Of a stretch of 64,000 nt of DNA, positions 1 to 20,300 are shown one piece after another; position 1 is the first letter of the stretch, and each line of letters starts with the position of its first letter. Source of the stretch: Obrimoposthia wandeli. Its lineage: Eukaryota. The notes under the pieces are model-generated. The model was not told the origin of the DNA. It did not search any database and saw nothing but the letters and a program-made list of their open reading frames with translations. The stretch spans positions 124,001-188,000 of the forward strand of contig CDROCS010006901.1 of assembly GCA_977020255.1 (NCBI GenBank), given 5' to 3'. The translations under genes and the position numbers were made by a program.

Positions 1-403
1 TGTGACTTATATAGTCAACTATGTGCTGTCAATCAGCACTCTCGAAATCAAATCGTGAGTCCGGCTTGGCGGCAGCTGCTACAACGGATCGATTTAAATT
101 AATTGCACGTAAATGTGCTTACCTTTTTCTGCTGACGTTTTTCTTTCTGCTGACGTTAGCAGATTTCTAAATTATTCCCGTTTTTTGCTTTTTGCACTTT
201 TGGGTTAATTAACTTAACTTTTATACATTTCACACCATACACGACCTTCGTGGTCCTCCTAATTTTTACCCTAAATTCCACTAATTTTGATTCTAAAACT
301 AAATTTAATATTTTAATTTAATTTTCAACCTTGCTTTCAAGGATTTTTATTTTAGTATTTAATCGACTAAAATATTTAAATTTCTTAATTCTCAAACCTA
401 ACA
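1..403 (-). repeat. 3' LTR (U3-proximal 403 bp visible)
   Basis: No mismatch seen by eye against 17365-17767; ends CCTAACA (TGTTAGG on the element strand) directly beside the PPT. Confidence 0.95.
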
Positions 404-1435: not shown

Positions 1436-1459
1436 GGATTGAAGACATTTTCGGATGAT

Positions 1460-1774
1460 CTACACATCAATTAGTCCTAACAATACTAATAGCATCATCA
1501 GTGCCGGTGTATGGTACTGTATGGTGTAATTGTGGATTTCGTTAAACCAGGAACTATTTCCGTGGTTGGAGCCTATTTCCTGTGCTCCCGTTATCGGCAT
1601 TAAACAACTTAACAAGCCTATCGCTAGCAATCTTTGGTATTGAAAGCTGGGCACTGTTGTTGTAGCTTCATTTCTTTCTCGTTGTTGCTTCCTCTTTTCG
1701 GTGTATTTCTCTATTTCTCGAACGAGTAACGGTTTGAAATCCGTATTTGGTCTATTCTGTTTGATGTAGACCAT
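1460..1774 (-). CDS. N-terminal part of the 3' accessory membrane ORF (signal-like segment, N-glycosylation sequons, TM)
   Basis: LLAIGLLSCLMPITGA|QE, sequons NSS and NYT, ALMMLLVLLGLIDV; after TAG 1460-1462 eight sense codons lead in frame to ATG 1435. Confidence 0.55.
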   Translation of the reverse strand: MVYIKQNRPNTDFKPLLVREIEKYTEKRKQQRERNEATTTVPSFQYQRLLAIGLLSCLMPITGAQEIGSNHGNSSWFNEIHNYTIQYHTPALMMLLVLLGLIDV

Positions 1775-4442
1775 CGCTTCTTCTGGCGAGAATAATTGGA
1801 TTGATTTCCCCTTCGTATTTGTGAATCGGATACGGTATTACACTATCTTTAAGTATCTCAACTTGGAACTGTGCTCCATAGCACATGACAATTGTTTCCA
1901 ATTTACCCATGATGGACAATCCATCGAAATAGGTAACATTCAGCTTAGATATCGGTGTCTTCGCATAATTAATTAAGTTTACTCGTATCTCAGTTGATGA
2001 CGGCCATCGATTTTTTAGTAAAATTATAATTTCGTCGTTTATCGATGTGATCACACTTGGCGCGGATGATACTATTTCAGCATGATATTTTGGCTGGATT
2101 GAGTTGGTCACTTGTTCTCGGATCATATTGATTCTTTGTGGTTTTTTATTTTTAGCTTCCCACTTCCGGTATCCGCTGTCAATGCGTAACTCTGCCGTTG
2201 CTTTGATGATTTTATTGTTAGTCACTTCCGGATGGGTTGGCGAATGGAATCCTTCTATTACGCTCAACCTTACAGATACTTCCGTTTGATCTGTGTCTAA
2301 CCGGTGAGATTCTGGTATACAACATACAATTGTCTTTCCATCAAAGTATTTGGTGTCCATCTGACAAATTATCTTTTCAGTGTCAGCGTCGATTAAATGG
2401 ACTCTCATGATATCTCTTTTCCCATGTGAATTACGTAATACCATTATTACATCGTGGTATTCTTGTTTGAGTCTTTTGGTGTACCATGCAGTATGTGACC
2501 ACCGGCCGGTTCTTTTTTCTTCCTGACTGGCTAGTCCTGCTTCAGTACTGTCATAGTTCTGCCATGCAACTATGTTTGGTGTCAATGTGATTTCGATTAT
2601 CACTTTCTCAGTCGTAAACACATTGGAATTTTGATAAAGTGCTGCGACTAGTGTATTTCCGTCGTAGTATGACACTCTAAGTTCGCACAGAAATTCGTTT
2701 GTCAGTGCATCTTTCACAATGACTTCTTTAGCCACATCTGTGGGTTGTGTTTTTTCGAAAACAACTATTATCTCTTCGTCTTCTTCTAATATCTCTTGTG
2801 GTGCGACGTGTCGGATTACTTCCTTTTCCTCTTGGTACTTCATTCTGAGCATACCAATTCTCGCTGGTTTTTTCTCGCTACCACTCGTCATCATGTTTAT
2901 ATAGTTCCGATCACTTACCATTCGTGTAAGTTTAATGGTATTGGTATTCGATTTCGATTTCTGTGATCTTAACTCATATCGTGACGCATTATCTTTATTT
3001 AGTACTAATTTGCATCGATTTGCATGTACAATCATCGGTTCCTTGTTCCGATTCTCTTCGTTGATTACTTTCAAATTTGTTGAGGTTGTCTGGATCACCT
3101 TGTATGGTCCTTTGTATGGTCTATGAAGTTTAAACGATAGACCTGGTTCGATGACTGGATAAAATATCATCACTTGATCTCCGACTCTAAATTCATGCGG
3201 TTTTGCTTTTTTGTCGTATTGTTCCTTGTAACCTTCTTGATTGAATTTCAACTTCAATCCGGCTTTGGTCCAAGCATCTTGTAACCTTTCCTTCATGACG
3301 ACAATGTATTGTTCAGTTTCTAGGTACTGAGATGTTGGCTCGGTCCACTCCAGATCCATCGGCATATTGTTCTGTCTGAGATACATCAGATAGAATGGTG
3401 TGTGACCCGTCGCCTCTCGAACTGAATTCCTGTAAGCATATAAACATGAAGGTAAATATTTATCCCAATCCTCTTGCTTGTCGGAGCAATAGGATTGTAC
3501 CATCATACATAAAGTTTTATTAAACCTTTCTACCAGACCATCTGTCTGTGGGTGATATGGTGAAGTTTGTAACTTCATGATTCCGAATATCTTCGATACT
3601 GCTTTGATTACTTCTCCAGTGAAGTTCTTACCTTGATCCGTTAACAACTTTCTAGGCACTCCGTATCGAAATATTATCTCTTCTACTAAGATTTGTGCTA
3701 TTGTTTCAGCCTTCTGGTTCTGTATGGGATATGCTTCTACCCATCTCGTCATGTAATCCGTAAATACTATGACATACTTGTTTCCTTTACTTGATTCTCT
3801 CAATGGTCCCAATATATCCATCGCTGTGAATTCCATTGGTGCCAAGGGAACTGGCATTGGTTTCAGTGGAACTTTAGTACGAGTTCCGGTGTCTTTTCTG
3901 GTTAAACATACTTTACATTGTTTACACCATTGTTTTATGTCGTCTTCCATACCATCCCAATGGTACTTCTCTTTGATTCTGGCTATTGTCTTTCGCCCTG
4001 ACAGATGTCCTCCTAGTGTTCCGTCGTGATACTGGATCATCACTGCTGTTTTCAATGACTTCGGAATTACTACTACTATCTTTCCGACATTATTGACAAT
4101 ATACAAGATGCCTTCTTTTATCGAGTATTTTTTCGTCATTTCATCGTTTAGATCTCCTTTCACCAACAATTCTTTAGTTAGACTCAGTTCTTCATCTTCT
4201 TTCTGTTCTTTGATGATCTCTTTGTCTATTTTACCCGTCTTTAGCAAAATCGTCAGTAGATTTGCTTCTCCTTTTTGGTCATTGGTTTCATCTTGTTTTT
4301 CCTCTGGAATTATGTTTCCTTTTTCATCTACATTTGTCAATCTCGACAAACAATCTGCGTTGCCGTTCGACTTTCCGGTTCTATAACGGATTTCTAGATC
4401 GAATTCGGCCAATTTTAGAAACCATCTGTTTAATCTACTCAT
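1752..4442 (-). CDS. pol part 3: RNase H end, integrase (HHCC, DDE, GPY/F) and a ~380-aa C-terminal extension with three repeats
   Basis: H..GGH...CKQC; AMDILGPL, TDQGKNF, QTDGLVERFNKTL; PYKGPYKV; three YxDG-containing repeats. Confidence 0.95.
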   Translation of the reverse strand: MSRLNRWFLKLAEFDLEIRYRTGKSNGNADCLSRLTNVDEKGNIIPEEKQDETNDQKGEANLLTILLKTGKIDKEIIKEQKEDEELSLTKELLVKGDLNDEMTKKYSIKEGILYIVNNVGKIVVVIPKSLKTAVMIQYHDGTLGGHLSGRKTIARIKEKYHWDGMEDDIKQWCKQCKVCLTRKDTGTRTKVPLKPMPVPLAPMEFTAMDILGPLRESSKGNKYVIVFTDYMTRWVEAYPIQNQKAETIAQILVEEIIFRYGVPRKLLTDQGKNFTGEVIKAVSKIFGIMKLQTSPYHPQTDGLVERFNKTLCMMVQSYCSDKQEDWDKYLPSCLYAYRNSVREATGHTPFYLMYLRQNNMPMDLEWTEPTSQYLETEQYIVVMKERLQDAWTKAGLKLKFNQEGYKEQYDKKAKPHEFRVGDQVMIFYPVIEPGLSFKLHRPYKGPYKVIQTTSTNLKVINEENRNKEPMIVHANRCKLVLNKDNASRYELRSQKSKSNTNTIKLTRMVSDRNYINMMTSGSEKKPARIGMLRMKYQEEKEVIRHVAPQEILEEDEEIIVVFEKTQPTDVAKEVIVKDALTNEFLCELRVSYYDGNTLVAALYQNSNVFTTEKVIIEITLTPNIVAWQNYDSTEAGLASQEEKRTGRWSHTAWYTKRLKQEYHDVIMVLRNSHGKRDIMRVHLIDADTEKIICQMDTKYFDGKTIVCCIPESHRLDTDQTEVSVRLSVIEGFHSPTHPEVTNNKIIKATAELRIDSGYRKWEAKNKKPQRINMIREQVTNSIQPKYHAEIVSSAPSVITSINDEIIILLKNRWPSSTEIRVNLINYAKTPISKLNVTYFDGLSIMGKLETIVMCYGAQFQVEILKDSVIPYPIHKYEGEINPIILARRSDGLHQTE

Positions 4443-5215
4443 CTCATCTCTATGTTTATATAAGAACTGTAGTGGTTTGTGATCTGTATACAGGAATACT
4501 TTTGTCCTAGCAAATAGTGTCTATATTGTCTACATGAATACACTATGGCTAGACATTCCTTTTCGATAACAGAGTATCCTCTTTCGGCTCTGTTTAATCC
4601 TCTACTCGCATACGCGATGACGTGTTCTCTTCCTTCGTCATCCTCTTGTCCCAATACTGCTCCTACAGCATAGTTACTTGCATCTGTCATGAGTATGAAT
4701 TGTCGGTTTATATCTGGAAACGCTAATATTGGTGCTTTTATCAGTCTTTCTTTTAAATGCTCGAACGCTTGTTGGGCTTCTTCTCCCCATATGAACTTCT
4801 CATCTTTTCTCGTCAACTTTCTCAGTGGTGTTGGTATATCTGAAAAATGTTCAACAAATCGTCTATAATAATTCGCAAGACCTAAAAAACTCTGTATCTC
4901 TTTAACAGTCTTTGGCGCTAAATGCGCTTTTACTTTCTCGATCTTTGCTGGATCAGGTCGAATGCCTTCTTTCGATACTATATGTCCTAAAAATGTTACT
5001 CGCTCTTTGGCCCATTCGCATTTTGTAGGTTTAACTTTTAATTTAGCGTTTTCCAGTCTTTTAAATACAACTTCAAGATTTTTTAAATGTTCTTCGAACG
5101 TTTTCGAAAATATTATTATGTCATCAATATAAACCATCGTGTTTGCACACGATGCGAGTACAAAATTCATACAACGCTGAAATGTTGCTGGAGCTCCTGT
5201 CAGTCCGAATGGCAT
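4439..5215 (-). CDS. pol part 2: reverse transcriptase C-terminal half and RNase H (frameshifted at both ends)
   Basis: MPFGLTGAPATFQR, YIDD, FLGHIV, TDASNYAVGAVL, YSVIEKECLAIV. Confidence 0.95.
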   Translation of the reverse strand: MPFGLTGAPATFQRCMNFVLASCANTMVYIDDIIIFSKTFEEHLKNLEVVFKRLENAKLKVKPTKCEWAKERVTFLGHIVSKEGIRPDPAKIEKVKAHLAPKTVKEIQSFLGLANYYRRFVEHFSDIPTPLRKLTRKDEKFIWGEEAQQAFEHLKERLIKAPILAFPDINRQFILMTDASNYAVGAVLGQEDDEGREHVIAYASRGLNRAERGYSVIEKECLAIVYSCRQYRHYLLGQKYSCIQITNHYSSYINIEMR

Positions 5216-7125
5216 CTTTTCGCATTCGTATAATCCATCTCCGCAGTTTTGTGTTTATCCTCTTCCTCTATCTCGATTTGCCAGTATCCACTCTGCAAAT
5301 CCAATGTCGTAAAATAATCTGAATTACCCAATTTATCGAGCATCTCTTCGATTCTAGGTAATGGATACACATCTTTTCTTGTGATCTTGTTCAGTTCTCT
5401 GAAATCTATACAGAATCTAATTTTCACATCCTTCTTTTTTACCAACACCACAGGTGCTGAGAATGGCGAAAAACTCGGTCTAATTACTCCTGTTTTAGAC
5501 ATATCTTCAATCTGACTTTTTACTTCATCTTGTAATTGTAATGGTACTCGGTATGGTCTTCTTCTGACTACTTTGTCTTCTGTCAGTGGTATTGTATGTT
5601 TTATGACAGGTGTTTCTCCTATGTCATATGGATTTTTTGCAATTACTTTTGGAAATTTATGTATTAGATCAAGTAATTGTTTCTTTTCTCTAGTTGTCAG
5701 TCTTTCTGATTGGATTACTATTTCTTCGTAATCATTCGTATCTTTATCGAGTTTCATAGCACACACGGTGGGATTCTCCATCTGTGCTATCTTTCCCAAC
5801 CTCATTCCTCTGTATAATAGGATGTCATTGTTGGTTGTATTCATCAGTCTAACTGGTATTTTGTGGTTTTCGATCAGGCATACTGTACTCACAACTGGTA
5901 ATTCGTATTTCTCTATGAAATCTCGTGATGGTTCGAACACAACTGGTCCTTTATCTTCTGATAATGTGTGACCTTGAATGAGAAATTGTGATCTTTTACC
6001 GATTTTTATAGGATTCTCTATAATTACATCAATTTGGTTTATTTGTCTGTTTGATGTGCTATCCTTCAATCTTGGATCTTGTAAATCAATACTTATCCCT
6101 TTAAGTTGTGATAGTACATCCATTCCTAAAATTGTAGGTTCAGGACATTCTTTCATGATTCTAACTGGTATAGTGATCGTATTACGTCCAATTATAAATG
6201 TACATGGTAATATTCCCGTCACTTTTACAGGGTCTCCATTGACCGATACCAAGAATTCATCTGGTTCTGCCATTGTTCGTTTCTGTTCCTCTGTCAAACA
6301 GTCTTCACTTACTATCGAAGCTACAGCACCTGTATCAATTAAGGCTTTTACTCTTAAATTATTTACTCTAATGATAGCTGCTGGTCGCTGTGCTCCATTT
6401 ATGTTTCCCATATGGTATATTGTATTTATCGAATTATTACACTCTGTCAGTCCACTTCCTGTGTTTGGATAGTGGAATCTAATGTTTCTCACTTGTCGAT
6501 CTATTATTCTTCGACAAATCGGACATGATACCATTTCATTCGCACATCTCCGACATGTTCTTACATGTCCGCATGGTAGAAAGGCAACTTCTATTTTGTT
6601 GATCATGCAAACTGCGCATTCCGGATCTTCTAGTACGTATTCCAGTTCATTTATGTACTCTTTCTCTTTTGTTTCAATTGTACTGTCATCTTTATCTCGC
6701 AGTAATTCAAAAATCGATCCGTATCCGTTTCGCGTAGTTTTTATTTTTAATTCTACCAATTCTCTGATTCTTTCTGCTTCTTTTGGATATAATCTTCTCA
6801 CGAATGACACTACCGGTGTGTCTTGTTGAGCCAAAATCTCTTTCCGTGTGATTTGGTATTCGATTATACATTCGGTTTTCTGTTCTTTTTGCTTTATTTT
6901 GTTTTTAAAAGTACAAAATTCGCAAAATTCATGATGTAAAATTTTCTTAGGTAGCTCAAGAGTGTATCTGTCGATAATTCGTTCTTTTTTACACTTGTGG
7001 CATTTAATTACGTCTTTACCATCCTTTTTTATAGCAAAAAGTCCCTTTTTTGCCAATTTTTTAAGTCTTGGATCTTCGAAGGTTACTTCTCGATATTGTT
7101 CGTCACATTCGTTCACTTCTCGCAT
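5200..7125 (-). CDS. pol part 1: degenerate BIR, IAP-type C3HC4 RING, retropepsin 2, RT N-terminal half
   Basis: LAKKGLF..DVIKCHKC..HHEFCEFC; CAVCMINKIEVAFLPCGHVRTCRRCANEMVSCPICR; ALIDTGA...ILGMDVL; RFCIDFRELN, YPLPRIEEML, LDLQSGYWQI. Confidence 0.93.
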   Translation of the reverse strand: MREVNECDEQYREVTFEDPRLKKLAKKGLFAIKKDGKDVIKCHKCKKERIIDRYTLELPKKILHHEFCEFCTFKNKIKQKEQKTECIIEYQITRKEILAQQDTPVVSFVRRLYPKEAERIRELVELKIKTTRNGYGSIFELLRDKDDSTIETKEKEYINELEYVLEDPECAVCMINKIEVAFLPCGHVRTCRRCANEMVSCPICRRIIDRQVRNIRFHYPNTGSGLTECNNSINTIYHMGNINGAQRPAAIIRVNNLRVKALIDTGAVASIVSEDCLTEEQKRTMAEPDEFLVSVNGDPVKVTGILPCTFIIGRNTITIPVRIMKECPEPTILGMDVLSQLKGISIDLQDPRLKDSTSNRQINQIDVIIENPIKIGKRSQFLIQGHTLSEDKGPVVFEPSRDFIEKYELPVVSTVCLIENHKIPVRLMNTTNNDILLYRGMRLGKIAQMENPTVCAMKLDKDTNDYEEIVIQSERLTTREKKQLLDLIHKFPKVIAKNPYDIGETPVIKHTIPLTEDKVVRRRPYRVPLQLQDEVKSQIEDMSKTGVIRPSFSPFSAPVVLVKKKDVKIRFCIDFRELNKITRKDVYPLPRIEEMLDKLGNSDYFTTLDLQSGYWQIEIEEEDKHKTAEMDYTNAKRCHSD

Positions 7126-10100
7126 AACTTCGATATATCTTCAATTCGACTATTCGTTATTACTCTACCTGTTATTAGGGCTGATTCTCCTTTTGGAATC
7201 CCGTCACTGTAATCGAAATCGGGTGCTTTTCCCGTTTGGATTTCTGGTACGTTTGAAGTTTTTAGTTTTAAAAGAAATGGACAATTTGGTGCATCTCTTT
7301 TATGACGTCTCATTGGGTTTTCATTCTGTTCCCATTCTCTAAACTTTACTCTACACCATACGCATCGTACTACTATCTCCTGACCATAACTGCTTGTCGC
7401 GTTTAACATTTCTAAACCTGATCTTGCCATTTTACGTGCCATTCCTTTTGAATAGTACTGTTCTAATATATTTCGTCTCTTTCTCTCGAATCTCATGGGA
7501 TCCCTTTCTGACAGATTTACATATGTTATTTTTCTCCTCGTCGTATCTTGTGGTCCGAAATTTACATTTTTGTAGTGAAGTATCGACTTTGCTAGCGCTT
7601 CCTGTTTTCTGTCTGGGTACGAACCTCCCATACGGAACGTAGTGCATTTTTCCTTTTCGACTATGGGTCCTCTCAACATTTTTATCTCTCTCACTGAACT
7701 GTCATTCTTACAACTCTTGTTGTTTGGTAGTATAATTATTCCTTCAAACATTCGTATTACGTCCATCCCAATCATGACTGGACTTCCGCAATCTGTGAAT
7801 ATTCTAGCATTTAACTGCAATGCTCTTCCATCGATATTCAACGAACATTTCAGTGTTCCTTCCGACACTACATCTGTACCATTCACGTTAACAAATGTCT
7901 GTTTTCTAGGACATACTTCTCTTAATTCTTTTGATGACAAGATTTCTTTACTTAGCACTGATACTGCTGATCCGGTATCAACTTCGGCAAGATATTCTCT
8001 TCCGTTCAATGTTACTGCTACTTGTGGTGGAGCATTTGGATTCTCATTTGATATTCTAGATTTCAGAATTCTTCTGGAATTATCTTTTTTGTCTTTTTCC
8101 TCTGCTTGTGGAATTTCACTGTAGCTCACTTTAGGCCATCTTATCATTAAGATGCCTCTCTTGAACTTTTCCTTCTCTTCCTTCAATTCCTTCATTGGAT
8201 ATAGGTTTAACGCCACTTCTTCCTTGTCTGGTAACGGAATCTTTGATTTTCCTGGTATCTTTGCATATACTTCTGGACTATCATTATCGTCGTCGTTGTC
8301 GTCTCGATAGTTTCTTGGTTCTCGCATCATGGTTCTCGTTTGGTGTTGTTCCTTCTTGAGGGCTCGCAACTCGTTCTCGTGATGATGGTGCATTAGATAT
8401 TTTGCTAAAAATGGAAAACATCCAATTATAAGTTGCCAGGTGATTCCGGTTATCCTGTATAAACTATACGTAGACAACACCTGGGCTATAATTACCTGCA
8501 CAAATTTAATTATAACATAAATACCTATGATACCCGAAAATAGTTGTCCTAAAACAAGGAATTTTCCCCACATCTTTCTAAGTGTCTGATGTGCTGCTTC
8601 CTTGAAATGACTTGGCGATAATAACATATCGAAATTCGCATATCTCGCTCCTGGCGGTAATGCTCGATGTACCATCTCCGTAAGTACTCTGGCTCTTCTT
8701 ACTGGAAACATTATTTCGTTCCACGCCGCTTTTAAATCTTTTTCATTGTACAATCCTGCGTTCTCCATATTTTCCACCGCTTGGAATTTCATTTTACCTT
8801 TAAGGTTCGTCATTCTTATCATCGCTGGGGTTGTCGTTGGCTTTCGATCAGGTAACGTTATCCATAGATTATTCGTCATCTGATATTCAGGTGCCATTAT
8901 ATTAGAGCAGCTGATTTCTTTAGTTGTAGTGTCTTTTGGAAGTAACATTCTCGTGATTGGTTCAACAAAAAGATCTTTTAAATTATACGTTACTGCCAAT
9001 TCGCTCGTACATCGATCTGTTTTTCTCAACTGTACCTCTACTTTATTACACTTGTAAGTATACAATACTTCTCCCATGGTTTTAGCAAATACTCCTTCAT
9101 CCAAGGGTAATAATGGTGCTACCATGTCTGGATTCGTAATAGCTAATGCTAACTTTGTTCTTACGATCTCTTTGTTTAACTGGCAATCTCTTTCGATCAT
9201 CATCCGATATAACTGTTCCATTTGCATCAATCCTTTATGATAATAGAAATCAATTTTATTATTAAAATACGTGTGTAGCTGCATATCTTTAGGTTTTAGC
9301 TTGGTTTCTGCCAATGCTATTGCTTCTTTAGACAAAACTATTCCTGGATAGTTTGTAGTACTAACAGTCATTCCGCATCGCGCTTTGTTTCTCTTTTTAA
9401 TAAATATCAATCCTTCTTCTATTGATGTTGCCATTAACAGTGTAGGTGTCTTTGTCATTGGAATTGGTCTTGTTTCATTTAGCAATCCTTTTCCAACTTT
9501 ATTATACAGGAATCCTTCTCCATCTTTATTATACAGGAATCCTTTTATTTTATTAAAACTAATCTCTTTCAAAAATACTAAAGAGCATTGCTTCGGATTT
9601 ATGTTATACACAATTGTGGATTCACCTGTAAAACAAGATGTATCTGTCATTTTACATTCTGGATACTTCATCATTAGTTGTGTCTTTTTATCAAAATTGG
9701 CGGTCCATGTTTTTAATTCAATTTTGTAAGTTACGTCCATTACTAACTCAGATACTTTGGTTCCACGCACGTTTTTTGTTTCTCCGTCACAAGATCCATC
9801 GGCCCATCGTTGTCCGACTCTCGTGACTGTTTCGTATCGTCTCACTCCAATTTTTACTTCAGGTTTGTAATTCTTGTCTACCTCTATTGTTCCCGTTCGA
9901 AATGCGTCTTCGCAATCTCTCGGCAAAACCTTATGTGCCTTGTACGGTGTGGTAGGTGTGATTTCTGACATAAAACTTCTATGACCACAATAGAATTCGT
10001 GATAACTTGAATGGATTGAACATTCTTTCACTTCTACTTGTGCTTTATCAACATCCTGATACACAAAGTAGTTTTCAACACCTTGAACTTCTAGTTTTGA

Positions 10101-11849
10101 CGGTTGTGACTCTGGGCAGTCTTCGCTGTCAAGCAGTGAATACTTTTGTCCCATCTTTGGTATGCTACAGTCATATGCTATCAATCCTGATGCCTGTTGC
10201 ATTCCCATAAACATTACTAACATCATCATCATCATTGTTGTGGACATATTTGGTGGATTGTTTCTCTCTTTCGGACGGTATTGTTTATTTTCCTTTTGAC
10301 GATTCTCATGACATTGTTCGTCATCGTCTTCATTCATTTCCACAATGATTTTAGCGTAGTCACTTAATTTTGCCCAACCTCCATTTTCGTCAATTCGTCT
10401 CTGTAATACATTCTCTATCAAATACATCGCTTCATTTATTCCTTGTTTGACTTCGTGAGGTTGGCTCGTTCGTTCCGTCAATTGGAAACATAGATATGTG
10501 ATCGCTGTAATTAACTTTTTATTTGTAGTCTGATTTCCGCATAGTCTCGCTAAAACTTCACCGTCATAAAATCTATCTATCGATGCATGGTATACATGAT
10601 TCGCGGTCATTCTCTTTACTGCAGACATCTGTGATCTGACTGCTTTAGTCAAATTGTCTGTTATATCGGTTGTTTCATCTCTGTACATTTTGAACAACTT
10701 CGGCTTCACTTGCCTGAGAATTCCCGTAAGTATATCTTTACTACTTGGAGTTTCCGAATTCATATCACCTCTGATATCTTCATTCCTCTCTGCACTATAC
10801 TGCTCTAATGACGCTGCTAACTGTCCAATACTTAGATGTCTCTCTTCATCAGTTTGTGGTGCTGTTAGAACATTTCGTAATATACTTTCGCCTTTTCTAG
10901 GTCTTCCAGGTCCTCTTCGAAAATACTGATACTCAGTTTGATTCTCTCCTGGATCATACGTTTCACCATTATACTGTATCTCTTGACTTGGTCCTTCTTC
11001 ATGGCCAATCTCTTCACTTTGTCGCATCATTTGCTCTGCTTGTCTATCTTTGTATGCGGCATGCCAAATTGGTGAATCCAAATCTACAATCTCGGAGACT
11101 TCGTCTTCTCCTACTAGTTGGGTTACGGTTTCGTTTTGTCTCACTTGGTTAGCTGTATCCGTGACTTCATCTTGTCTGATTGGAATTATATCTGGTTCTG
11201 GTGGCACCTCGACCACTGGAGTTGTCAACTCATTTTCTAAATTCATGTCTTGTAATTCAGTTACGTACGGTTCTGGTGTGGATGTCTTGTTCCAAGCTTC
11301 AGCTACATCATTATCTCCGCTTTCACTTGAACTGTCTAAAATTTCTATAGGCGTTTTTATCATTTCTAACGCAGAATTCAATATCTCGGTTAATCCTTCA
11401 TTATCTACTAACTCTTGACGTCCTACAGTGATGACATCAATTTTTTCCTCTAATTCATTTCCTATCGGATATCCAAACTCGACTGGTACGTCCTCATCAT
11501 CTAGTGATCTCCCTTTATAATGGAACAACATATTCATTCCATCAATTTCAAGTTTCTCGGCTAACTTTTTCCGAATCGTTTTCATTGTTTGATACACGTT
11601 AAGTTTTTCATGTATTATCTGTCCGGAAATTAATCGAAGTGAAATTTTCATCGTTCCTTTTTGGTTTGATCTCTGTACGTAACGACCATAACCTTTCAAT
11701 AATCCTCGGGTTACTTCTTTGTAACCCAAGTTATCATGACTATGTTTAACCAATTCTGCTCGCACTTCTTCCAATCGGTGCACTTTAATTGTTTGCAATT
11801 TGGCCAAAACTTCTGGAGCTTCACTCGTTTCATCTAACGGTTGATTCAA
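7113..11849 (-). CDS. Multidomain polyprotein: Ub/SUMO-like, AT-hook, Bcl-2-like, signal peptide + chuvirus-like envelope glycoprotein + TM, retropepsin 1, BIR
   Basis: 1578-aa ORF (track start is TTG); RRGPGRPRK; RIDENGGWAKL; LIAYDC..CGH..GSCDG..YFNNKIDF..RDCQL..GEVLYTYKC; AEVDTGS..MIGMDVI; VRCVWCRVKFREWEQNENPMRRHKRDAPNCPFL. Confidence 0.88.
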   Translation of the reverse strand: MNQPLDETSEAPEVLAKLQTIKVHRLEEVRAELVKHSHDNLGYKEVTRGLLKGYGRYVQRSNQKGTMKISLRLISGQIIHEKLNVYQTMKTIRKKLAEKLEIDGMNMLFHYKGRSLDDEDVPVEFGYPIGNELEEKIDVITVGRQELVDNEGLTEILNSALEMIKTPIEILDSSSESGDNDVAEAWNKTSTPEPYVTELQDMNLENELTTPVVEVPPEPDIIPIRQDEVTDTANQVRQNETVTQLVGEDEVSEIVDLDSPIWHAAYKDRQAEQMMRQSEEIGHEEGPSQEIQYNGETYDPGENQTEYQYFRRGPGRPRKGESILRNVLTAPQTDEERHLSIGQLAASLEQYSAERNEDIRGDMNSETPSSKDILTGILRQVKPKLFKMYRDETTDITDNLTKAVRSQMSAVKRMTANHVYHASIDRFYDGEVLARLCGNQTTNKKLITAITYLCFQLTERTSQPHEVKQGINEAMYLIENVLQRRIDENGGWAKLSDYAKIIVEMNEDDDEQCHENRQKENKQYRPKERNNPPNMSTTMMMMMLVMFMGMQQASGLIAYDCSIPKMGQKYSLLDSEDCPESQPSKLEVQGVENYFVYQDVDKAQVEVKECSIHSSYHEFYCGHRSFMSEITPTTPYKAHKVLPRDCEDAFRTGTIEVDKNYKPEVKIGVRRYETVTRVGQRWADGSCDGETKNVRGTKVSELVMDVTYKIELKTWTANFDKKTQLMMKYPECKMTDTSCFTGESTIVYNINPKQCSLVFLKEISFNKIKGFLYNKDGEGFLYNKVGKGLLNETRPIPMTKTPTLLMATSIEEGLIFIKKRNKARCGMTVSTTNYPGIVLSKEAIALAETKLKPKDMQLHTYFNNKIDFYYHKGLMQMEQLYRMMIERDCQLNKEIVRTKLALAITNPDMVAPLLPLDEGVFAKTMGEVLYTYKCNKVEVQLRKTDRCTSELAVTYNLKDLFVEPITRMLLPKDTTTKEISCSNIMAPEYQMTNNLWITLPDRKPTTTPAMIRMTNLKGKMKFQAVENMENAGLYNEKDLKAAWNEIMFPVRRARVLTEMVHRALPPGARYANFDMLLSPSHFKEAAHQTLRKMWGKFLVLGQLFSGIIGIYVIIKFVQVIIAQVLSTYSLYRITGITWQLIIGCFPFLAKYLMHHHHENELRALKKEQHQTRTMMREPRNYRDDNDDDNDSPEVYAKIPGKSKIPLPDKEEVALNLYPMKELKEEKEKFKRGILMIRWPKVSYSEIPQAEEKDKKDNSRRILKSRISNENPNAPPQVAVTLNGREYLAEVDTGSAVSVLSKEILSSKELREVCPRKQTFVNVNGTDVVSEGTLKCSLNIDGRALQLNARIFTDCGSPVMIGMDVIRMFEGIIILPNNKSCKNDSSVREIKMLRGPIVEKEKCTTFRMGGSYPDRKQEALAKSILHYKNVNFGPQDTTRRKITYVNLSERDPMRFERKRRNILEQYYSKGMARKMARSGLEMLNATSSYGQEIVVRCVWCRVKFREWEQNENPMRRHKRDAPNCPFLLKLKTSNVPEIQTGKAPDFDYSDGIPKGESALITGRVITNSRIEDISKLCEK

Positions 11850-11869
11850 CGTCTCCTTAGCTTCACTAA

Positions 11870-13846
11870 TTATCTTTTTACATCTTCCATACTCGTAGCA
11901 TTTCTCGCTGCTTCCACATGATCAGTCATAGGTTGTGCGTTACACGTTTTCTCTATTGGTGTCTCATACGCTTCTAGTATTCTATTCATTAAATCATTCA
12001 TCTCTTCTCTCGAGTGTAGACTTTTCTCTTGTTTCGACAACGTAGATGAATTCGCCATCTTTGTATGTGGTGAATCTTTAATTATTCCCAACATTCGTTC
12101 AAATTTACTATCACTATCTTCAAAATCTATTTCGCGTCGAAGCTCGGTCTCGCGATTCCTATCACTGTCATCGCTTACATAACTAAAATTTCCTTTCGGT
12201 TTCGGCGAACTCTCTCGACTATTTGTCTTGTCGACATTATTATTATTATATCTACCAGAATTATTATATATCTCAGCTCCTTGCTGTCCTACGTAATTAT
12301 TGTATCTCTCAGCTCCTTGCTGTCTGTCTGCATAGTTATTGTATCTACCTGGTGACTGTTGTCTATCTGTATACTGATTATTCAGTCTCCATGGCTGTGG
12401 AGTATATCCACCACCTCTATTCCATGGCGGAGGTGAATTATATCCTCTATAATTATTTCCAAAATTATTATTACCGAAATTATTATTTCCAAATCTGTTA
12501 GCTCCGAACTCTTTACTTCTCGTACAATCTCTCGAATAGTGACCCATTTGTTTACACGTGTAACACATTATTCTCCCTCGAATATCTATCTTATTTTGTT
12601 CATCTTCAAACTGTACTCGACGACTATTCTGTCTATTATCATAGCGTCCTCTAAAATCATTTCTTCGGAAATTCGATTCAAAACCGCTTCCTCGATTATT
12701 GAATCTTCCGTCACTATTTCCTGTATTATTTCCAAATCGAGAGTCACTTCGCTCTCCTCTGTTGGCGTTATAATTCCTATCGTCTCCTCTCCAAGGTTGG
12801 CGATTTCCGGAATTATCTCTATTAAATCTATTCCTGGAATCATCTCTATTTCTATTCCACGAATCATTATTATTTCTACCTCTTGAATCATCTCGATTCC
12901 TGTTCCAAGACTCACTATTATTTCTACCTCTCGAATCATCTCGATTCCTACTTCGGAAATTATCTCTATTTCCGTTACTGGATTCATCTACTTTTTCAAA
13001 CTTATTTTGTCCATAATTTCGATTCTGAAAATTACTCGGTTCTGTTTTATTCACGAAGACCTTTGTCTTATCGTCGTCACCTGCAGTCATTGCGTAAATT
13101 GCCAATGCTGCATTATTTTTTATATTTTTCTCAATCTCTCTCGCCTTTCGTACGGCATTATCAAAATCATTTGTATCCGATACTGCTAATAACACTTTAA
13201 TATCCTTTTTCAATCCTCCTCTAAATATATCTAACAAAACCTCTGCCATTTCATTTTGGTTCCGGTCATTTTCCGCTGCTTGTGCTTCTGGAGCTACAGG
13301 ATTACCGTCCTGATTTCTCATTATTCTTCTTGGGTACGCTCTTGCGGCCAAGGTTCTCAAAACATATGCGTATTCATTCACGCCTTCATCATGTTTCTGT
13401 TTCCGTTCTCTCATGAGTCGCTTATTTACTTTGGCTAAGTCTCCTAATACCAATTTTCCAATAAAAGCATTTTCCAACGTTGGCCAGTCTAAACGTTCTG
13501 CTTCTGTCAAATGTTTATACACTTCAAGTGCTAATCCGGTTAAATGTGCCTGTACTCTGACACATTTTTCTCTATCGTTCCATCCTTGAACATCTGCACA
13601 ACTCGAATATTCTGCGAGAAAGTCACAAATACTTTCCTCATCTCCTTTAAACTTTGTAATCTGCAATGATCCTGAAAAATTGGGTCTCAACGTCGCATTT
13701 AAAGCTTGTGCCAACTGCTCGGCATTCATTTCACCTACATTATTTCCTGCATTAATATCTGCTTGAGCTCCTGGGTGAGCCATATTTTCAGCTATATCCT
13801 CTTCAACTATTCCTTCAATATTATTTACTTGAACTTCTTCAATCAC
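11870..13846 (-). CDS. gag: Gag (retrotransposon capsid domain, R/N/D/G-rich repeats, CCHC zinc knuckle)
   Basis: ITKFKGDEESICDFLAEYSSCADVQGW capsid-like region; CYTCKQMGHYSRDC; track start is GTG, first ATG at 13783. Confidence 0.92.
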   Translation of the reverse strand: MIEEVQVNNIEGIVEEDIAENMAHPGAQADINAGNNVGEMNAEQLAQALNATLRPNFSGSLQITKFKGDEESICDFLAEYSSCADVQGWNDREKCVRVQAHLTGLALEVYKHLTEAERLDWPTLENAFIGKLVLGDLAKVNKRLMRERKQKHDEGVNEYAYVLRTLAARAYPRRIMRNQDGNPVAPEAQAAENDRNQNEMAEVLLDIFRGGLKKDIKVLLAVSDTNDFDNAVRKAREIEKNIKNNAALAIYAMTAGDDDKTKVFVNKTEPSNFQNRNYGQNKFEKVDESSNGNRDNFRSRNRDDSRGRNNSESWNRNRDDSRGRNNNDSWNRNRDDSRNRFNRDNSGNRQPWRGDDRNYNANRGERSDSRFGNNTGNSDGRFNNRGSGFESNFRRNDFRGRYDNRQNSRRVQFEDEQNKIDIRGRIMCYTCKQMGHYSRDCTRSKEFGANRFGNNNFGNNNFGNNYRGYNSPPPWNRGGGYTPQPWRLNNQYTDRQQSPGRYNNYADRQQGAERYNNYVGQQGAEIYNNSGRYNNNNVDKTNSRESSPKPKGNFSYVSDDSDRNRETELRREIDFEDSDSKFERMLGIIKDSPHTKMANSSTLSKQEKSLHSREEMNDLMNRILEAYETPIEKTCNAQPMTDHVEAARNATSMEDVKR

Positions 13847-14424
13847 TACTGGATTGGCAATTTCAATTTCTTCTGGGTTTTGAACTTCAAGATTATCAAT
13901 TTCTTCTGGGTTTATGTCACCAATTAACTCAGTCAGATCAAAACTATCGGTTGAAACTGCTGATTGATTTACGTCTCTTTCTGATACGTTTTCTTCGACT
14001 CTAGTCTTTTCTGTTACTTTGTTATCTGTTTGGGGAACCTGTTCAATTCGGTTAACTTTATTATTATTTGTCTCTTCCTTGGGAATCTGGCTTTGTCTTC
14101 AAGTATTAAACGCGGGTCCTTTTCTATTATCCGTTGTCTTATCAATTATGTATTCGTTTACGATATCAATTTACTTATTATTTTTATCTTATTTCACAAT
14201 TCTTATTTTACGATTTTTTATCTCTTTAATTAGTTCGAGGACAGAGTCTCCCGACTTAACCTATTCAATTAATTACTTCGAGTATCAATCCACTCGATTC
14301 TCACTTTATCAAATTTATTTACGATTTTATCTTTTTAATTAGTTCGAGGACAGAGTCTCCCGACTTAGCTTATTCAATTAATTACTTCGAGTATCAATCC
14401 ACTCTATTCTCACTATCAAATTTA

Positions 14425-15019
14425 CTGACTCGAGGAACAAATCCACTCGACTTCTCAAAACCTATCAAATTCTTAACTTCGAGGAACAAATCTACCCGAT
14501 TTCTCAAAACTTATCAACTTCTTAACTTCGAGGAACAAATCTACCCGATTTCTCAAAAACTTATCAAATTCTTAACTTCGAGGAACAAATCTACTCGATT
14601 TCTCAACACTTATCAAATTCTTAACTTCGAGGAACAAATCTACCCGATTTCTCAAAAACTTATCAAATTCTTAACTTCGAGGAACAAATCTACTCGATTT
14701 CTCAACACTTATCAAATTCTTAACTTCGAGGAACAAATCTACCCGATTTCTCAAAAACTTATCAAATTCTTAACTTCGAGGAACAAATCTACTCGATTTC
14801 TCAACACTTATCAAATTCTTAACTTCGAGGAACAAATCTACCCGATTTCTCAAAAACTTATCAAATTCTTAACTTCGAGGAACAAATCTACTCGATTTCT
14901 CAACACTTATCAAATTCTTAACTTCGAGGAACAAATCTACTCGATTTCTCAACACTTATCAAATTCTTAACTTCGAGGAACAAATCTACCCGATTTCTCA
15001 AAAACTTATCAAATTCTTA
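14425..15019. repeat. 49/50-bp tandem array (~12 copies, mostly alternating A/B variants) in the 5' leader
   Basis: Unit CTTAACTTCGAGGAACAAATCTAC(C/T)CGATTTCTCAA(AA/C)ACTTATCAAATT. Confidence 0.95.
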
Positions 15020-15039
15020 TCTCAATTTACTTATATCTT

Positions 15040-15235
15040 CTTCTGAAACTTATTCTCAATTGTCTATATTCTTCTGCTGAAACTTATTCTTAATTTATCT
15101 GAAACTTATTCTCAATTTATCTGAAACTTATTCTCAATATCTGAAACTTATTCTTAATATCTGAAACTTATCTGAACTTATTCTATTTACCTGAAACTTA
15201 TTCTCAATTTTCCAAAACTTATCTGAACTTATTCT
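15040..15235. repeat. Degenerate ~20-22-bp tandem repeat in the 5' leader
   Basis: Repeated CTGAAACTTATTCT(C)AAT. Confidence 0.85.
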
Positions 15236-15263
15236 ACGTGAATTCGCTGTGTCCGACGAGCTA

Positions 15264-15281
15264 TCCTCACTCGGGGCACCA
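15264..15281 (-). promoter_or_regulatory. Primer-binding site, elongator tRNA-Met type
   Basis: Element strand TGGTGCCCCGAGTGAGGA; plus strand TCCTCACTCGGGGCACCA resembles the 3' end of animal elongator tRNA-Met (..GATCCTCACACGGGGCACCA, recalled from memory). Confidence 0.85.
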
Positions 15282-15346
15282 CTTTAATATGTTGGGGTTT
15301 CTATACGAAACTCGGTATAGATCCTCTTGAGTGCGGAGGGCCCCAA

Positions 15347-15358
15347 CGTGAGTTCGAT
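15347..15358 (-). promoter_or_regulatory. Putative primer activation signal (complement of the tRNA-Met T-arm)
   Basis: Plus strand CGTGAGTTCGAT equals the tRNA-Met segment just 5' of the PBS-paired region; next to the stem GTTGGGG(15291-97)/CCCCAAC(15341-47). Confidence 0.6.
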
Positions 15359-15769
15359 TAGAAGCAGGTCTTAAAGTTGGTCGTGGCCTACTTAGTTTTA
15401 TGGTTGCCTAATCTCTTGTACTATCTGAAGGTATTTGATTTGATGTCTCTTATTCTGAAGGATGCAAAAACAACTTGTTCTAATGTAGGAAATTGTTTAT
15501 TTGTAATTCACGAACTAAAACACAACAATACGTTTATGTACGTATTTTCTAAAAAGTATAGTAAAATTCCTAAGACTTCTGTAAGTCTCTACAACAAGTG
15601 GGGATGAACCACGTATCGATTTTATGTTAAGGGTGATCGAGTTTTTAGAGTCGTTCTTCTAACTCGCGAATAAGCTCAAGTTAAGATTTTCAAATTAATG
15701 TGACTCTTATGTCAAACTCTAACTTTAATTCCCAATTTAACTTTAATGGCAACTTTTATCTTTATACCA

Positions 15770-16436
15770 AAACTATGGCAATTTAGAAAAAACTTCTCTT
15801 CAAACTTTTATGGCAATTTAGACAAAAACTTCTCTTCAAACTTTTATAGCAATTTAGACAAAAACTTCTCTTCAAACTTTTATGTCAATTTAGACAAAAA
15901 CTTCTCTTCAAACTTTTATGGCAATTTAGACAAAAATTTCTCTTCAAACTTTTATGGCAATTTAGACAAAAACTTCTCTTCAAACTTTTATAGCAATTTA
16001 GACAAAAACTTCTCTTCAAACTTTTATGTCAATTTAGACAAAAACTTCTCTTCAAACTTTTATGGCAATTTAGACAAAAACTTCTCTTCAAACTTTTATG
16101 CAATTTAGACAAAAACTTCTCTTCAAACTTTTATGTCAATTTAGACAAAAACTTCTCTTCAAACTTTTATGGCAATTTAGACAAAAACTTCTCTTCAAAC
16201 TTTTATGGCAATTTAGACAAAAACTTCTCTTCAAACTTTTATAGCAATTTAGACAAAAACTTCTCTTCAAACTTTTATGTCAATTTAGACAAAAACTTCT
16301 CTTCAAACTTTTATGGCAATTTAGACAAAACTTCTCTTCAAACTTTTATGGCAATTTAGACAAAAACTTCTCTTCAAACTTTTATGGCAATTTAGACAAA
16401 AACTTCTCTTCAAACTTTTATGGCAATTTAGACAAA
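15770..16436. repeat. 36-bp tandem array (~18 copies) inside the LTR
   Basis: Unit AACTTTTAT(GG/AG/GT)CAATTTAGACAAAAACTTCTCTTCA. Confidence 0.95.
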
Positions 16437-16489
16437 TTCTAATGTCAAACTTTATGACAATTTTAGGACAATTTAGACAATTTTATTAA

Positions 16490-16768
16490 TCAAACTTTAT
16501 GATAACTTTAGGACAATTGAGACAAATTTTAGTAATCAAACTTTATGATAACTTTAGGACAATTGAGACAAATTTTAGTAATCAAACTTTATGATAACTT
16601 TAGGACAATTGAGACAAATTTTAGTAATCCAACTTTATGATAACTTTAGGACAATGGAGACAAATTTTAGTAATCAAACTTTATGATAACTTTAGGACAA
16701 TTGAGACAAATTTTAGTAATCAAACTTTATGATAACTTTAGGACAATTGAGACAAATTTGAGTAATCT
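16490..16768. repeat. 46-bp tandem array (~6 copies) inside the LTR
   Basis: Unit CAAACTTTATGATAACTTTAGGACAATTGAGACAAATTTTAGTAAT. Confidence 0.95.
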
Positions 16769-17369
16769 CTCTTACGTTTTTTGTCTCGAGGTTGAGGTAT
16801 CCTGAAGCGTTCCGGAATATACTGAGATCGAACACAAAAACCGATCGGCTGACTGAATTGGAATTTCCGAATGAAAATTCGCTGATATAGTGCTGACTGG
16901 AACAACGATTGAACTGGTTTACAAGCTCTGCTCCGTGATAGATCGAGATTTGTATGTCGCTGTTACGACGTTGCCCAAATCCGTGATAGATTGATCTTTA
17001 AGTCTTGTGTTGTATTGTCGCGCTTCGTCTATTCCGTCTTCTGTCTGGTCTCAGGAGTATTGATTGAGTGCGGTATTGATTTCTTATTTTTTCTGGGACT
17101 GTGTTTTGATTTACACTTTGTTGCTTTATATCTTTTCTAAGACTGAATTTTTCTCCAATTCAATTTCGCACTCTCTGCTAATTTCGAGGCTTATTTCTCT
17201 TTTCTAATCTGCCAAAGTGCTTTACCTGGAGAAATAGGTTAACTGCACTTAACTAAAAATTGCTCACCTCTGGACGATTAACACCTGCTTTTCCTCCAAT
17301 TCAACTTTTCTCTATCAGAGCCTCCGAGACTTGTTTCTCTCGTTTTTTGTTTTGTAGGAAGTGCTGTGA

Positions 17370-17377
17370 CTTATATA
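17370..17377 (-). promoter_or_regulatory. Candidate LTR TATA box
   Basis: Element strand TATATAAG ~390 bp into U3; TATAAAG at ~17124-17130 is an alternative. Confidence 0.3.
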
Positions 17378-20300
17378 GTCAACTATGTGCTGTCAATCAG
17401 CACTCTCGAAATCAAATCGTGAGTCCGGCTTGGCGGCAGCTGCTACAACGGATCGATTTAAATTAATTGCACGTAAATGTGCTTACCTTTTTCTGCTGAC
17501 GTTTTTCTTTCTGCTGACGTTAGCAGATTTCTAAATTATTCCCGTTTTTTGCTTTTTGCACTTTTGGGTTAATTAACTTAACTTTTATACATTTCACACC
17601 ATACACGACCTTCGTGGTCCTCCTAATTTTTACCCTAAATTCCACTAATTTTGATTCTAAAACTAAATTTAATATTTTAATTTAATTTTCAACCTTGCTT
17701 TCAAGGATTTTTATTTTAGTATTTAATCGACTAAAATATTTAAATTTCTTAATTCTCAAACCTAACAATTTTATTAATTCTTGAATCTATAATTTGAGTT
17801 TCATCAAAAAATATTTTATTGAAAAATTATTCTTTAGGTTCAATTTTAAAAATATATAATATTAGGTATTGATATTTTAATAGTAAATGAGTTTAGAATA
17901 AAATAATGAATAGGGCTTGAAATAAAATTATGGGTAGGGTTATACGCATAGATGTATGTAAGCAATAGACTAATATATGGAATCAATATAGAAATATTAT
18001 TACAAATATTAGGAAGAAACTTTTGATTCCTACTTCAATTAGAGAAAATAATTATTTTTATTCATTTTTAGACCACATTGTAACTTTCTGCAACAAATAT
18101 CTGTGTTTCTGTGATTTTAACGAAGGTCGAAAATTTACTAGACCATAGTTTAAATTTAATAAACTTTTTCTAATTGGCCGTAGTTTAAAATTTATGAAAT
18201 CATATTGCAACTATTTGCAACTTATGTGCAAGTTGTATGCAATAAATGTCTTAGTTCTGAATTCCTTGAATTTAAATTTATGTAAACGCTTTCCACTCAC
18301 AAATAAAAGTAAATGAAATTACTCAAAATAAGCTATTTTTAAATTTGACAAATACTTCTAAAGAAAATAATCTTTGTGTTAAATTTTTTTAAAAATTGCT
18401 AAGCCTTTTAAAAATTTAAACCAAAATGATTTTTGGAGAAAAAATTGACGTTAACATTTAAAATTTGAATTTGCACACACAAATATTGATGCGTTTAAAG
18501 AAAATGAGATGAAAACTGACGTACTATATTACATACTGACCATCAAATTAAATTGGCTTTAACGTACTCGGCTGAAATTTGAGCTACATTCCATAACCTT
18601 AACGAACTCGATTAAAATATGTTCTACATATGGTTTCCATGGTAATGACAAATGTTCTCAAAATAAAACTGGTCTAGATCTCTCGGAAGGTACCCACAGG
18701 CTTTCTACTATTTGTTTAAGTATTCAGATCCTACTACTTACTACCGATAAGAAATTTTATTCAAATTTAAACAATACTCTTCAAAAAGTTTGTGTATCAA
18801 TAAGAAATTGATATATGCTTATTTTCTCGTTTAAAAAATCTATATCTATTATTAGTATTTTTTGACATATATGGATTTAATAGATAGAAATTTATACGAT
18901 ATCTAAAGAATATATTTCAATTACCATGTAGGTGTTATTGAGTTTTAATAATATTCGATTATACTTAATGTAAACTTATCTAATACAGGTTCCTCTAATG
19001 CTTTTTCTAACCCTTGTCATTAATTCATTTATTTATGTTTAATTTGATTTAAACTAAATGGGGTATTATTATTATGAATTATTATATTGTACACATACAT
19101 ATTTTGTAAGTATTTCATTATATATTCCTTATATATTTATCTGCACACCATTAGACTTATCTGAGGATACATACATACACACATACATAAATTTAAATAA
19201 AACACTATTCCCTATCGCTAATTTATTTTACTTAATTTTGATTCTTAAAGGTCTGGTGCTACTACTGACCCAACTACTCACCTGCTACTCATGTTGATGG
19301 TACTGAACCGTTTTACTGTATATTTAGTGGCAGTGTTATTAATAAAAGATGTTGAAATTTAAAATATATTTTTCTATAAAAAGAATTCAAATACAAATGT
19401 TGTAAAAATGTTGTACCTGTAATAATAAAAAATAACTTGTGTCTTTGTAGGTTGGTTCTCGAAAGTCTGACCAAGATTAGACTATGTGATTTATGATGGG
19501 CTTTAATAAGTAGTTTTTTATAAATTGAAGGAGGACCAAGTTTTGTGGTCTATCCTATAGTGACAATATGACCTTATGACCACCTTAAAAATACAAATCT
19601 AATATAGTAAATGGGAACACTTGCCAACGCAGTCGGCCATGATGAGTTATGCCATAATCGGAATGAAGGCACCTATCCGTTTAAAACGGATATACTAGGG
19701 AGAACGACCATGAAAAATGATGTGCTCATGAGAAACTTTCGTCGAACACCAGATAATGCAGACTGTAAAAAGGTGCTCATTGAAATACTGGTTTATATAA
19801 ATTATGATTCAACTTAAAATTTGTTTTTTAAAATTCTTAAGTTTAGTCATTTAAACGCTAATTAATTGTTCTTTGTGATATTTTCTCTGTTTATTAAAAT
19901 CTCGATCAATGTAACTGCACCTATAGTTGCAAATTAGGTATATAATAGGATGCCATTAAACTGAAGAATTTTTTTAAAACTATCAGAAATCCATGCTGAA
20001 AAACTCGAATATTTTATGTTTGTTTACTGAGAACGACAGCATCATTAAAATACAATAAGAATAGAGTTGAAGCTATGGTAAGAGACAGTTGACTACTCCC
20101 TTTAAGAGCAATCGAAGGTAAACTAAAGCCTGTACATGTTTGATGCTTATCGACAGATAACTCATCCAACCCTAAATTAATGAGGCATATGTTCAAAGAC
20201 AAGATTATTGACTTTCATTACCCTTAACACACCATTCCCAGACCAGTAGTTTTTCATATAGAGAAGCTCATGCAGCCTATTTTTGTTGTTGTTGTTGATG

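Follow-up and report, generated by a model that had tools for sequence, protein, structure and literature searches.

A 64,000-nt stretch of the Obrimoposthia wandeli assembly (GCA_977020255.1, contig CDROCS010006901.1, positions 124,001 to 188,000), referred to here as the window, carries on its minus strand, at 8390..10247, a region that is very probably the envelope (env) domain of a Burro-like giant Ty3/Gypsy "errantivirus" of GAG-ENV-POL layout in a flatworm. This reading draws on sequence and on modeled structure. The env sits in a Gypsy long terminal repeat (LTR) element of ~19.7 kb, or ~21 kb once a segment missing from the window copy is counted. An env that precedes pol in the same frame is already known from published elements; what looks new is the combination of two intact-looking proteases with phosphatase cargo in one very large protein.

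The identity of the env is the best-supported part of this picture. The Pfam model PF24664 (Monjiviricetes_fusion), which covers chu-like virus glycoproteins and herpesvirus gB, matches the window Env with 319 bits (E 4.4e-95, cut-off 27), a score that is far above chance level. A sequence-only reading of the window had proposed a chuvirus-type class III (gB-like) glycoprotein on the strength of seven motifs, and all seven are found in one minus-strand frame in the order claimed: LIAYDC (10184-10167), CGHRSF (9989-9972), GSCDG (9797-9783), YFNNKIDF (9269-9246), RDCQL (9191-9177), GEVLYTYKC (9074-9048), and LFVEPITRML (8972-8943). A signal-peptide-like stretch and the C-terminal hydrophobic block that it described are likewise present by hydropathy, at ~10238-10197 upstream and 8561-8472 downstream of the motifs. 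The ectodomain of ~540 residues contains 14 cysteines, a single N-glycosylation sequon, and no furin-type site. A sequence search of the PDB with Env gave no match under E 0.2, while an AlphaFold2 model built from an 88-row alignment reached a mean predicted local distance difference test score (pLDDT) of 88.6. With this model Foldseek placed herpesvirus gB on top among PDB entries (E 7.7e-14, template modeling score, TM, ~0.4). In a set of viral models, chu-like virus glycoproteins came out on top, with E 4.4e-42 and TM scores reaching 0.66. By sequence and predicted fold, Env is a class III fusogen. It has the fold and the PF24664 match in common with the glycoproteins of Jingchuvirales and mononegaviruses and with gB, from which it differs in its low identity (at most 20%) and in that theirs are stand-alone genes.

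The surrounding element is Gypsy-type in its domain order and terminal features. The protease-reverse transcriptase-RNase H-integrase order, TG...CA LTRs, tRNA primer site, purine tract, and target-site duplication fit Ty3/Gypsy (Metaviridae), and Ty3 is the best solved relative of the reverse transcriptase (RT) when ranked against the PDB (E 3.7e-48). The 5' and 3' LTRs are 99.2% identical over 1,853 nt and are flanked by the 4-bp target-site duplication AAAT. The tRNA-end pattern of the primer-binding site gave 54 matches and none in controls. At one locus of the assembly (L031, 1-2004) tRNA-Met(CAT) genes lie in a tandem array with ~284-nt spacing, and this array is the likely primer source. 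The sequence-only reading was thereby right about the Gypsy-type RT, as Gypsy RT_RNaseH, Integrase_H2C2, and GPY are all present; right about the placement of env, which is preceded by Gag and followed by RT, RNase H, and integrase; and right about the fusion, as the stop-free frame runs from env into the VDTGS protease. That the region might instead be an endogenised glycoprotein of a negative-strand virus, or part of a BEL/Pao element of the Anakin type, has next to no probability: the Anakin-type protein P0024 does belong to the same Pfam family, but no BEL/Pao family (DUF5641 or others) is found in six frames at E 0.1, the Gypsy-type domains are present with env upstream of pol, and the element holds no viral polymerase or nucleoprotein. 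This identity was ruled out on the Pfam domain set together with Ty3 as the best RT match.

The sequence-only reading took env to lie in a 1578-aa open reading frame (ORF). The frame in fact runs from 7113 to 11921 and has 1,602 codons between its bounding stops, or 1,512 if counted from its first ATG. It is a fragment, both ends of which are frame breaks of the window copy. This copy shifts frame near 11900, 7125, 5230, and 4480, where sister tiles are stop-free in 8/9, 16/17, 9/9, and 9/9 cases, respectively; the Env-protease junction is open in 17/17. Counted over all seven junctions, open tiles number 8/9, 17/17, 16/17, 9/9, 9/9, 9/9, and 8/9, in a set of nine copies picked for long frames and nine picked by score, with one copy present twice. 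In the 71 copies with the highest scores, the frame that contains env spans 738-5,295 codons (median 2,257), is longer than that of the window in 54, and leaves env free of internal stops in 70. Sister copies are read as a single polyprotein of ~5,000-5,300 codons in the order Gag, ubiquitin-like, Bcl-2-like, Env, protease, BIR, BIR, RING, protease, RT, RNase H, integrase, followed by three Ig-like (beta-rich) repeats, a dual-specificity phosphatase, and a membrane tail. Given the wide range of frame lengths, many copies must be broken at some point, through decay or assembly error. Runs of at least four equal bases adjoin three of the four main window breaks and 9/27 private breaks, against a background of 15%. 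A compensating pair of frame differences relative to most sisters lies at ~2480-2520, in the region of the second beta-rich repeat, and leaves the frame open; at its end the polyprotein frame crosses the purine tract, and its stop codon falls just inside the 3' LTR, among the initial six bases (398-403). The window copy itself, judged from its sequence, is a broken, recent insertion.

Relatives of the env are numerous. A full HMMER scan returned 1,346 of them, whereas a word-index protein search returned 2, and the alignment and tree discussed here comprise 88 of the 150 matches listed. The closest relatives are polyproteins at 29-44% identity; next come stand-alone glycoproteins of ~650 residues at 19-24%. 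The env cysteines are invariant over the 88 aligned proteins, stand-alone glycoproteins included. According to the sequence-only reading, a Gypsy lineage had captured a chuvirus glycoprotein independently and in an unprecedented topology. The top viral structural matches are indeed chu-like, and the published POL tree, in which GAG-ENV-POL elements are not monophyletic (PMC13524379), makes separate captures among phyla possible. Even so, this scenario is very improbable. The window env nests in a 13-sequence clade (FastTree support 0.999, stem 0.58) with 27-44% identity among its members to the window env, as opposed to 19-24% for the stand-alone glycoproteins, and those clade members with flanking domains are gag/pol-linked polyproteins. 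Env and RT trees of seven elements have two strong splits in common, although P0007 and P0010 are placed differently. By eye, motifs of the window env also recur in six Schmidtea env rows from the supplement of PMC13524379; five short Schmidtea motifs had no exact match in the retrieved proteins. Because the env belongs to this well-supported clade of gag/pol-linked polyproteins, its capture appears to be old and shared rather than particular to the window element. The topology is not new either, since the available text of PMC6431247 already places an in-frame env between gag and pol of Burro, and that of PMC13524379 reports Gypsy elements with the GAG-ENV-POL order and gB-type env.

Within this clade, chains carry between one and seven protease domains. 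Env, protease, RT, and integrase occur in a single chain in P0004, P0007, P0015, P0016, and P0153, and a sixth relative has env, protease, and RT in one chain. DTG protease domains were counted with a profile built from many of the counted domains. P0153 has seven, five of them ahead of RT and the other two behind integrase; P0004 has three, and P0007, P0010, P0015, and P0016 have one each; P0005 has at least four, P0006 three, and P0003, P0009, and P0012 two, these last five chains ending before RT. The most extreme case is P0153, a protein of 4,844 aa that also carries ankyrin and C2H2 domains. Protease trees are mostly unresolved: within-element duplication is supported for two pairs (in P0012 and P0005), and a sister relation of the window's two proteases is not shown. 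Signal-like and membrane segments after integrase end P0004, P0007, P0015, and P0153. P0007, a eukaryotic Gypsy env-pol polyprotein, has a bacterial metagenome-assembled genome as its source label and is probably a binning contaminant.

The family is abundant and young. Exact 20-mers occur 5,950 times in the assembly for env, 3,675 times for the phosphatase, and 3,030 times for integrase, with none for the controls, which corresponds to about 3,000-6,000 copies. At up to 21 kb each, these copies would account for no more than 5-9% of the 1.35-Gb assembly. This figure is a ceiling, given that deletions have shortened many copies, that haplotypes may be represented twice, and that some contigs look bacterial. 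The 99.2% identity of the LTRs, the target-site duplication, and the number of exact env 20-mers point to recent activity. Twenty further tiles, 14 without a paired integrase or phosphatase 20-mer and six with odd spacing, belong to older subfamilies at 88-98% identity; they have the same layout and private deletions, none of which recurs.

Env, the two proteases, and the cargo are under purifying selection, as shown by ratios of non-synonymous to synonymous variation (pN/pS), all of which use a single reference copy and are not independent of each other. Against young copies the ratio is 0.035 for the env ectodomain, 0.042 for integrase, 0.071 for protease 1, 0.024 for protease 2, 0.062 for the ubiquitin-like domain, 0.135 for the Bcl-2-like domain, and 0.27 for the linker; the RING finger stands at 0.43 with very few changes. 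Against nine older copies protease 1 has 0.105 and protease 2 0.215. The DTG motif is retained at 30/30 readable sites in protease 1 and 23/25 in protease 2. It could be argued that Env plays a passenger role and that its frame is preserved solely because a stop or frameshift would cut off the downstream pol: with env upstream of pol in one frame, nonsense changes would be purged regardless of function, and the env ratio rises to 0.23 against the older copies. Read-through, however, requires no conservation of amino acids, whereas the env ectodomain of young copies differs by a mean of 15.9 synonymous and 2.2 non-synonymous changes and neighbouring linkers have ratios of 0.20-0.30. In addition, the deletions in the 20 tiles have differing ends and none recurs, albeit in tiles chosen by an env 20-mer, a choice that excludes env-less copies. 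A passenger role is accordingly given very little weight.

The ~1.26 kb absent from the window copy encodes, in its sisters, an acidic linker, a dual-specificity phosphatase, and a second, degenerate phosphatase domain, and the deletion junction near window position 1789 occurs once in the assembly. The sister-copy phosphatase matches PF00782 (E 2e-41), has DUSP10 as its best solved relative (E 5e-24), and features the loop HCxxGxSRS, which is retained in 19 of the 20 readable tiles among 29 examined. Its pN/pS is 0.022-0.089, and that of the degenerate domain is 0.074. Relative to published elements, two intact proteases plus phosphatase cargo look novel. Searches of literature listings brought up no paper on repeated proteases or phosphatase cargo in such elements, although published figures and Repbase may already show repeated proteases.

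The closest published counterpart is Burro (GYPSM1) of planarians, in which an in-frame env separates gag from pol and follows ubiquitin-like and BCL2 domains (PMC6431247, 2019). The comparison sets domain order against the published description, as far as its available text goes, with the RT ranked against solved structures. Both have a single giant ORF (4,873-5,140 aa in Burro), a likeness at family level given that the window copy is broken, as well as long LTRs, thousands of copies, and a flatworm host. They also agree in the order Gag, ubiquitin-like, BCL2, Env, protease...RT, RNase H, integrase, in the presence of BIR, and in env matches to mononegaviruses; the match in the ubiquitin-like and BCL2 domains rests on domain scores below cut-off. 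Burro differs in exceeding 30 kb, in having two or three CCHC knuckles instead of one, and in carrying MATH and ankyrin domains, neither of which was matched here by Pfam; no accessory ORF was seen here. The element is called Burro-like rather than Burro proper because it is shorter than 30 kb and lacks a MATH or ankyrin match. Between protease and RT, where Burro has a dUTPase-like domain, the window family has a constrained 130-aa segment without a Pfam match. Unlike anything in the Burro text, it has two proteases flanking a BIR-BIR-RING unit, and a phosphatase pair plus Ig-like repeats after integrase. The Burro env was likened to gypsy Env (PMC6431247), whereas the fold of the window Env is class III.

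A gB-type env is also reported in further Gypsy elements of the GAG-ENV-POL layout, which come from Platyhelminthes, Nematoda, and Bryozoa, and chuvirus-like glycoproteins are reported in 114 arthropod Gypsy elements (PMC13524379, 2026). Nine of the listed elements are from flatworms, six of these from Schmidtea with 1-215 copies; like the window family they have a Gypsy pol, a gB-type env before pol, and multiple young copies, while the copy number of the window family is far higher. The available passages of PMC13524379 are silent on polyproteins, fusion, BIR, and repeated proteases, and those of PMC12440569, PMC11410931, and PMC13238120 hold nothing further on domains. The Anakin BEL/Pao elements of mosquitoes also contain a chuvirus-like glycoprotein inside an LTR element (PMC7642597), but differ in superfamily, insect host, and env position, and the passages available describe no apoptosis or phosphatase cargo.

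If the Burro-like reading is correct, a single mRNA would yield a polyprotein of ~5,000 residues, whose internal signal sequence would thread Env into the endoplasmic reticulum (ER). Signal peptidase would free the Env N-terminus by cutting before LIAYDC, and the Bcl-2-like domain would then end in a membrane anchor, as its cellular counterparts do; the distance from the GGW motif to the signal is 27-60 residues in the window and three relatives measured. The Env anchor would bring the chain back to the cytosol. In this arrangement six main hydrophobic segments would alternate, so that the lumen would receive the Env ectodomain and, at the C-terminus, a small domain, with Gag, the proteases, Pol, and the phosphatase remaining cytosolic. 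Cleavage by the two retropepsins would then free the cytosolic modules: Gag, the BIR-BIR-RING unit, Pol, and the phosphatase. Since retropepsins act as dimers, two protease domains in one chain could pair in cis. Env trimers on budding particles would mediate fusion with other cells, and particle entry is the most likely role of Env, while the Bcl-2-like, IAP-like, and phosphatase cargo may protect the producing cell from death and dampen the kinase signalling of stress or immune responses.

Several observations weigh against parts of this account. The Bcl-2-like, ubiquitin-like, and second BIR domains fall below Pfam cut-offs. The topology is derived from hydropathy only, and the helix after the Env anchor, if it crosses the membrane, would put Pol in the lumen. 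The junction counts are biased upward because the nine long tiles were selected for long open frames. As for selection, every ratio depends on the one reference copy, the env value against older copies is above those of integrase (0.052) and RT/RNase H (0.10), and BIR1 reaches 0.57 against the same nine copies. The main alternative is that Env is needed for something other than infection, as an assembly anchor at the ER membrane or for passing particles to neighbouring cells by direct fusion, so that the element would spread within a single animal, in its stem-cell and germ lineage, without a free virion. Purifying selection on Env shows a need and not a route; the ectodomain has a lone sequon in 540 residues; a single frame makes Pol equal in amount to Gag and Env, unlike in typical retroviruses; and the available text of PMC13524379 calls it unclear how far such Env proteins confer infectivity. 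A mere anchor, on the other hand, would not need a complete class III ectodomain with cysteines invariant in 88 aligned proteins. This alternative is plausible enough to keep in view, though it is on balance doubtful.

Extending the Burro-like reading in the opposite direction, the flatworm elements might be infectious retro-transcribing viruses with a multi-pass polyprotein and several cis-paired retropepsins (two here, up to seven) that cut before capsid assembly. The paired enzymes would cut out Env, Pol, and the host-control modules without awaiting a capsid; the cargo would comprise Bcl-2-like and IAP-like proteins, a MAPK-type phosphatase with a pseudo-phosphatase, and Ig-like repeats; and small accessory membrane proteins may be receptor binders for the gB-like fusogen. 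This is speculative and rather unlikely, but if true it would mean a cargo toolkit of the kind otherwise known from large DNA viruses.

Table 1. Features of the element in the window (positions are those of the window).
Feature	Position	Strand	Basis or remark
5' LTR, 2,478 bp, TG...CA, with 36- and 46-nt tandem repeats	15290..17767	-	LTR comparison
Primer-binding site, 19 nt, complementary to 3' end of host tRNA-Met(CAT)	15263..15281	-	
Tandem repeats of 49/50 nt in 5' leader	14408..15099	-	
Gag: capsid-like part, one CCHC knuckle near 12565-12521, R/N/G-rich tail	11870..14098	-	Copy-specific frame break at 3' end
Ubiquitin-like domain (weak)	11451..11699	-	PF00240 E 0.0036, below cut-off
Bcl-2-like domain (weak), BH2-like GGW motif 10388-10374	10251..10751	-	PF00452 E 0.065, below cut-off
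Env internal signal sequence (predicted)	10185..10247	-	Hydropathy; conserved hydrophobic stretch before AYDC in relatives; cleavage inferred
Env ectodomain, class III (gB-like)	8562..10184	-	Pfam, motif scan, alignment, AlphaFold2 model, Foldseek
Env membrane anchor, then shorter hydrophobic helix	8390..8561	-	Model, alignment, hydropathy
Aspartyl protease 1	7700..8030	-	DTG motif VDTGS 7982-7968
BIR domain 1	7272..7442	-	PF00653 E 4e-9, over cut-off
BIR domain 2, degenerate	6840..7100	-	E 0.017, below cut-off; copy-specific frame break near 7125
IAP-type RING finger	6496..6627	-	PF13920 E 8e-12
Aspartyl protease 2 (IDTGA), canonical position before RT	6090..6390	-	30% identity to protease 1
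Gypsy-type RT (YIDD) and RNase H	4400..5640	-	Copy-specific frame breaks near 5230 and 4480
Integrase: H2C2, rve core, GPY motif	3000..4100	-	Pfam
Three beta-rich repeats of ~100 aa	1791..2840	-	IPT/TIG-like by language-model features only
Site of missing segment, ~1.26 kb	1780..1800	-	9/9 sister tiles carry the segment
C-terminal tail, four hydrophobic segments	398..1837	-	Hydropathy
3' LTR start, purine-rich tract just before	1..403	-	Extends 1,931 bases past window start

Several of the weaker domains in Table 1 have additional observations. Gag matches zf-CCHC (E 7e-6), and its Retrotrans_gag match (E 0.008) is below cut-off. A ubiquitin-like domain is found at the same position in the relative P0019. 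For the Bcl-2-like domain, the GGW region aligned in 4/8 relatives, P0001 gives a Bcl-2-like match at E 0.001, and the region has no PDB match. The repeats after integrase have neither a Pfam match nor a homologue, and a single-sequence fold model of them has a pLDDT of 35. An IPT/TIG-like identity is a lead only, as its Atlas scores are 0.88 and 0.92 and its recognition falls below threshold; an RRM identity, suggested by a PDB profile match at E 0.008 and weak domain scores, was judged to be chance and rejected.

Elsewhere in the window, a host TDP-43 gene (22020-23376, plus strand) with matches to PF18694 and two RRM domains lies ~4 kb from the 5' LTR. From ~27000 to 64000 the window consists of near-identical ~10.3-kb tandem units, each with a 400-nt piece of 28S rRNA (30794, 41134, 51489, 61884); the units contain 342-nt and 51-nt sub-repeats and long inverted repeats, and no further rRNA part above threshold was found in them. 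The multi-copy mitochondrial COX1 of the assembly fits translation table 9, with AAA at conserved Asn and ATA at conserved Ile. Table 9 is the code of rhabditophoran flatworms and echinoderms, and the degree to which this COX1 departs from the standard invertebrate sequence suggests a flatworm. One further COX1, different in sequence and located on a small contig, fits table 5 and probably derives from food or contamination. Many full-length mitochondrial COX1 copies lie in large contigs, and stop-free bacterial-looking oxidase genes are also many; the assembly seems to be unfiltered.

The repetition of intact retropepsins within one polyprotein, with one to seven per chain across the clade, implies an unusual processing scheme. 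The constrained phosphatase with its intact catalytic loop would add control of kinase signalling to the apoptosis cargo already known from Burro. With thousands of young copies and an Env under purifying selection, the family offers a good test case for the infectivity of gB-type Env proteins, and it may occupy several percent of the genome of its host.

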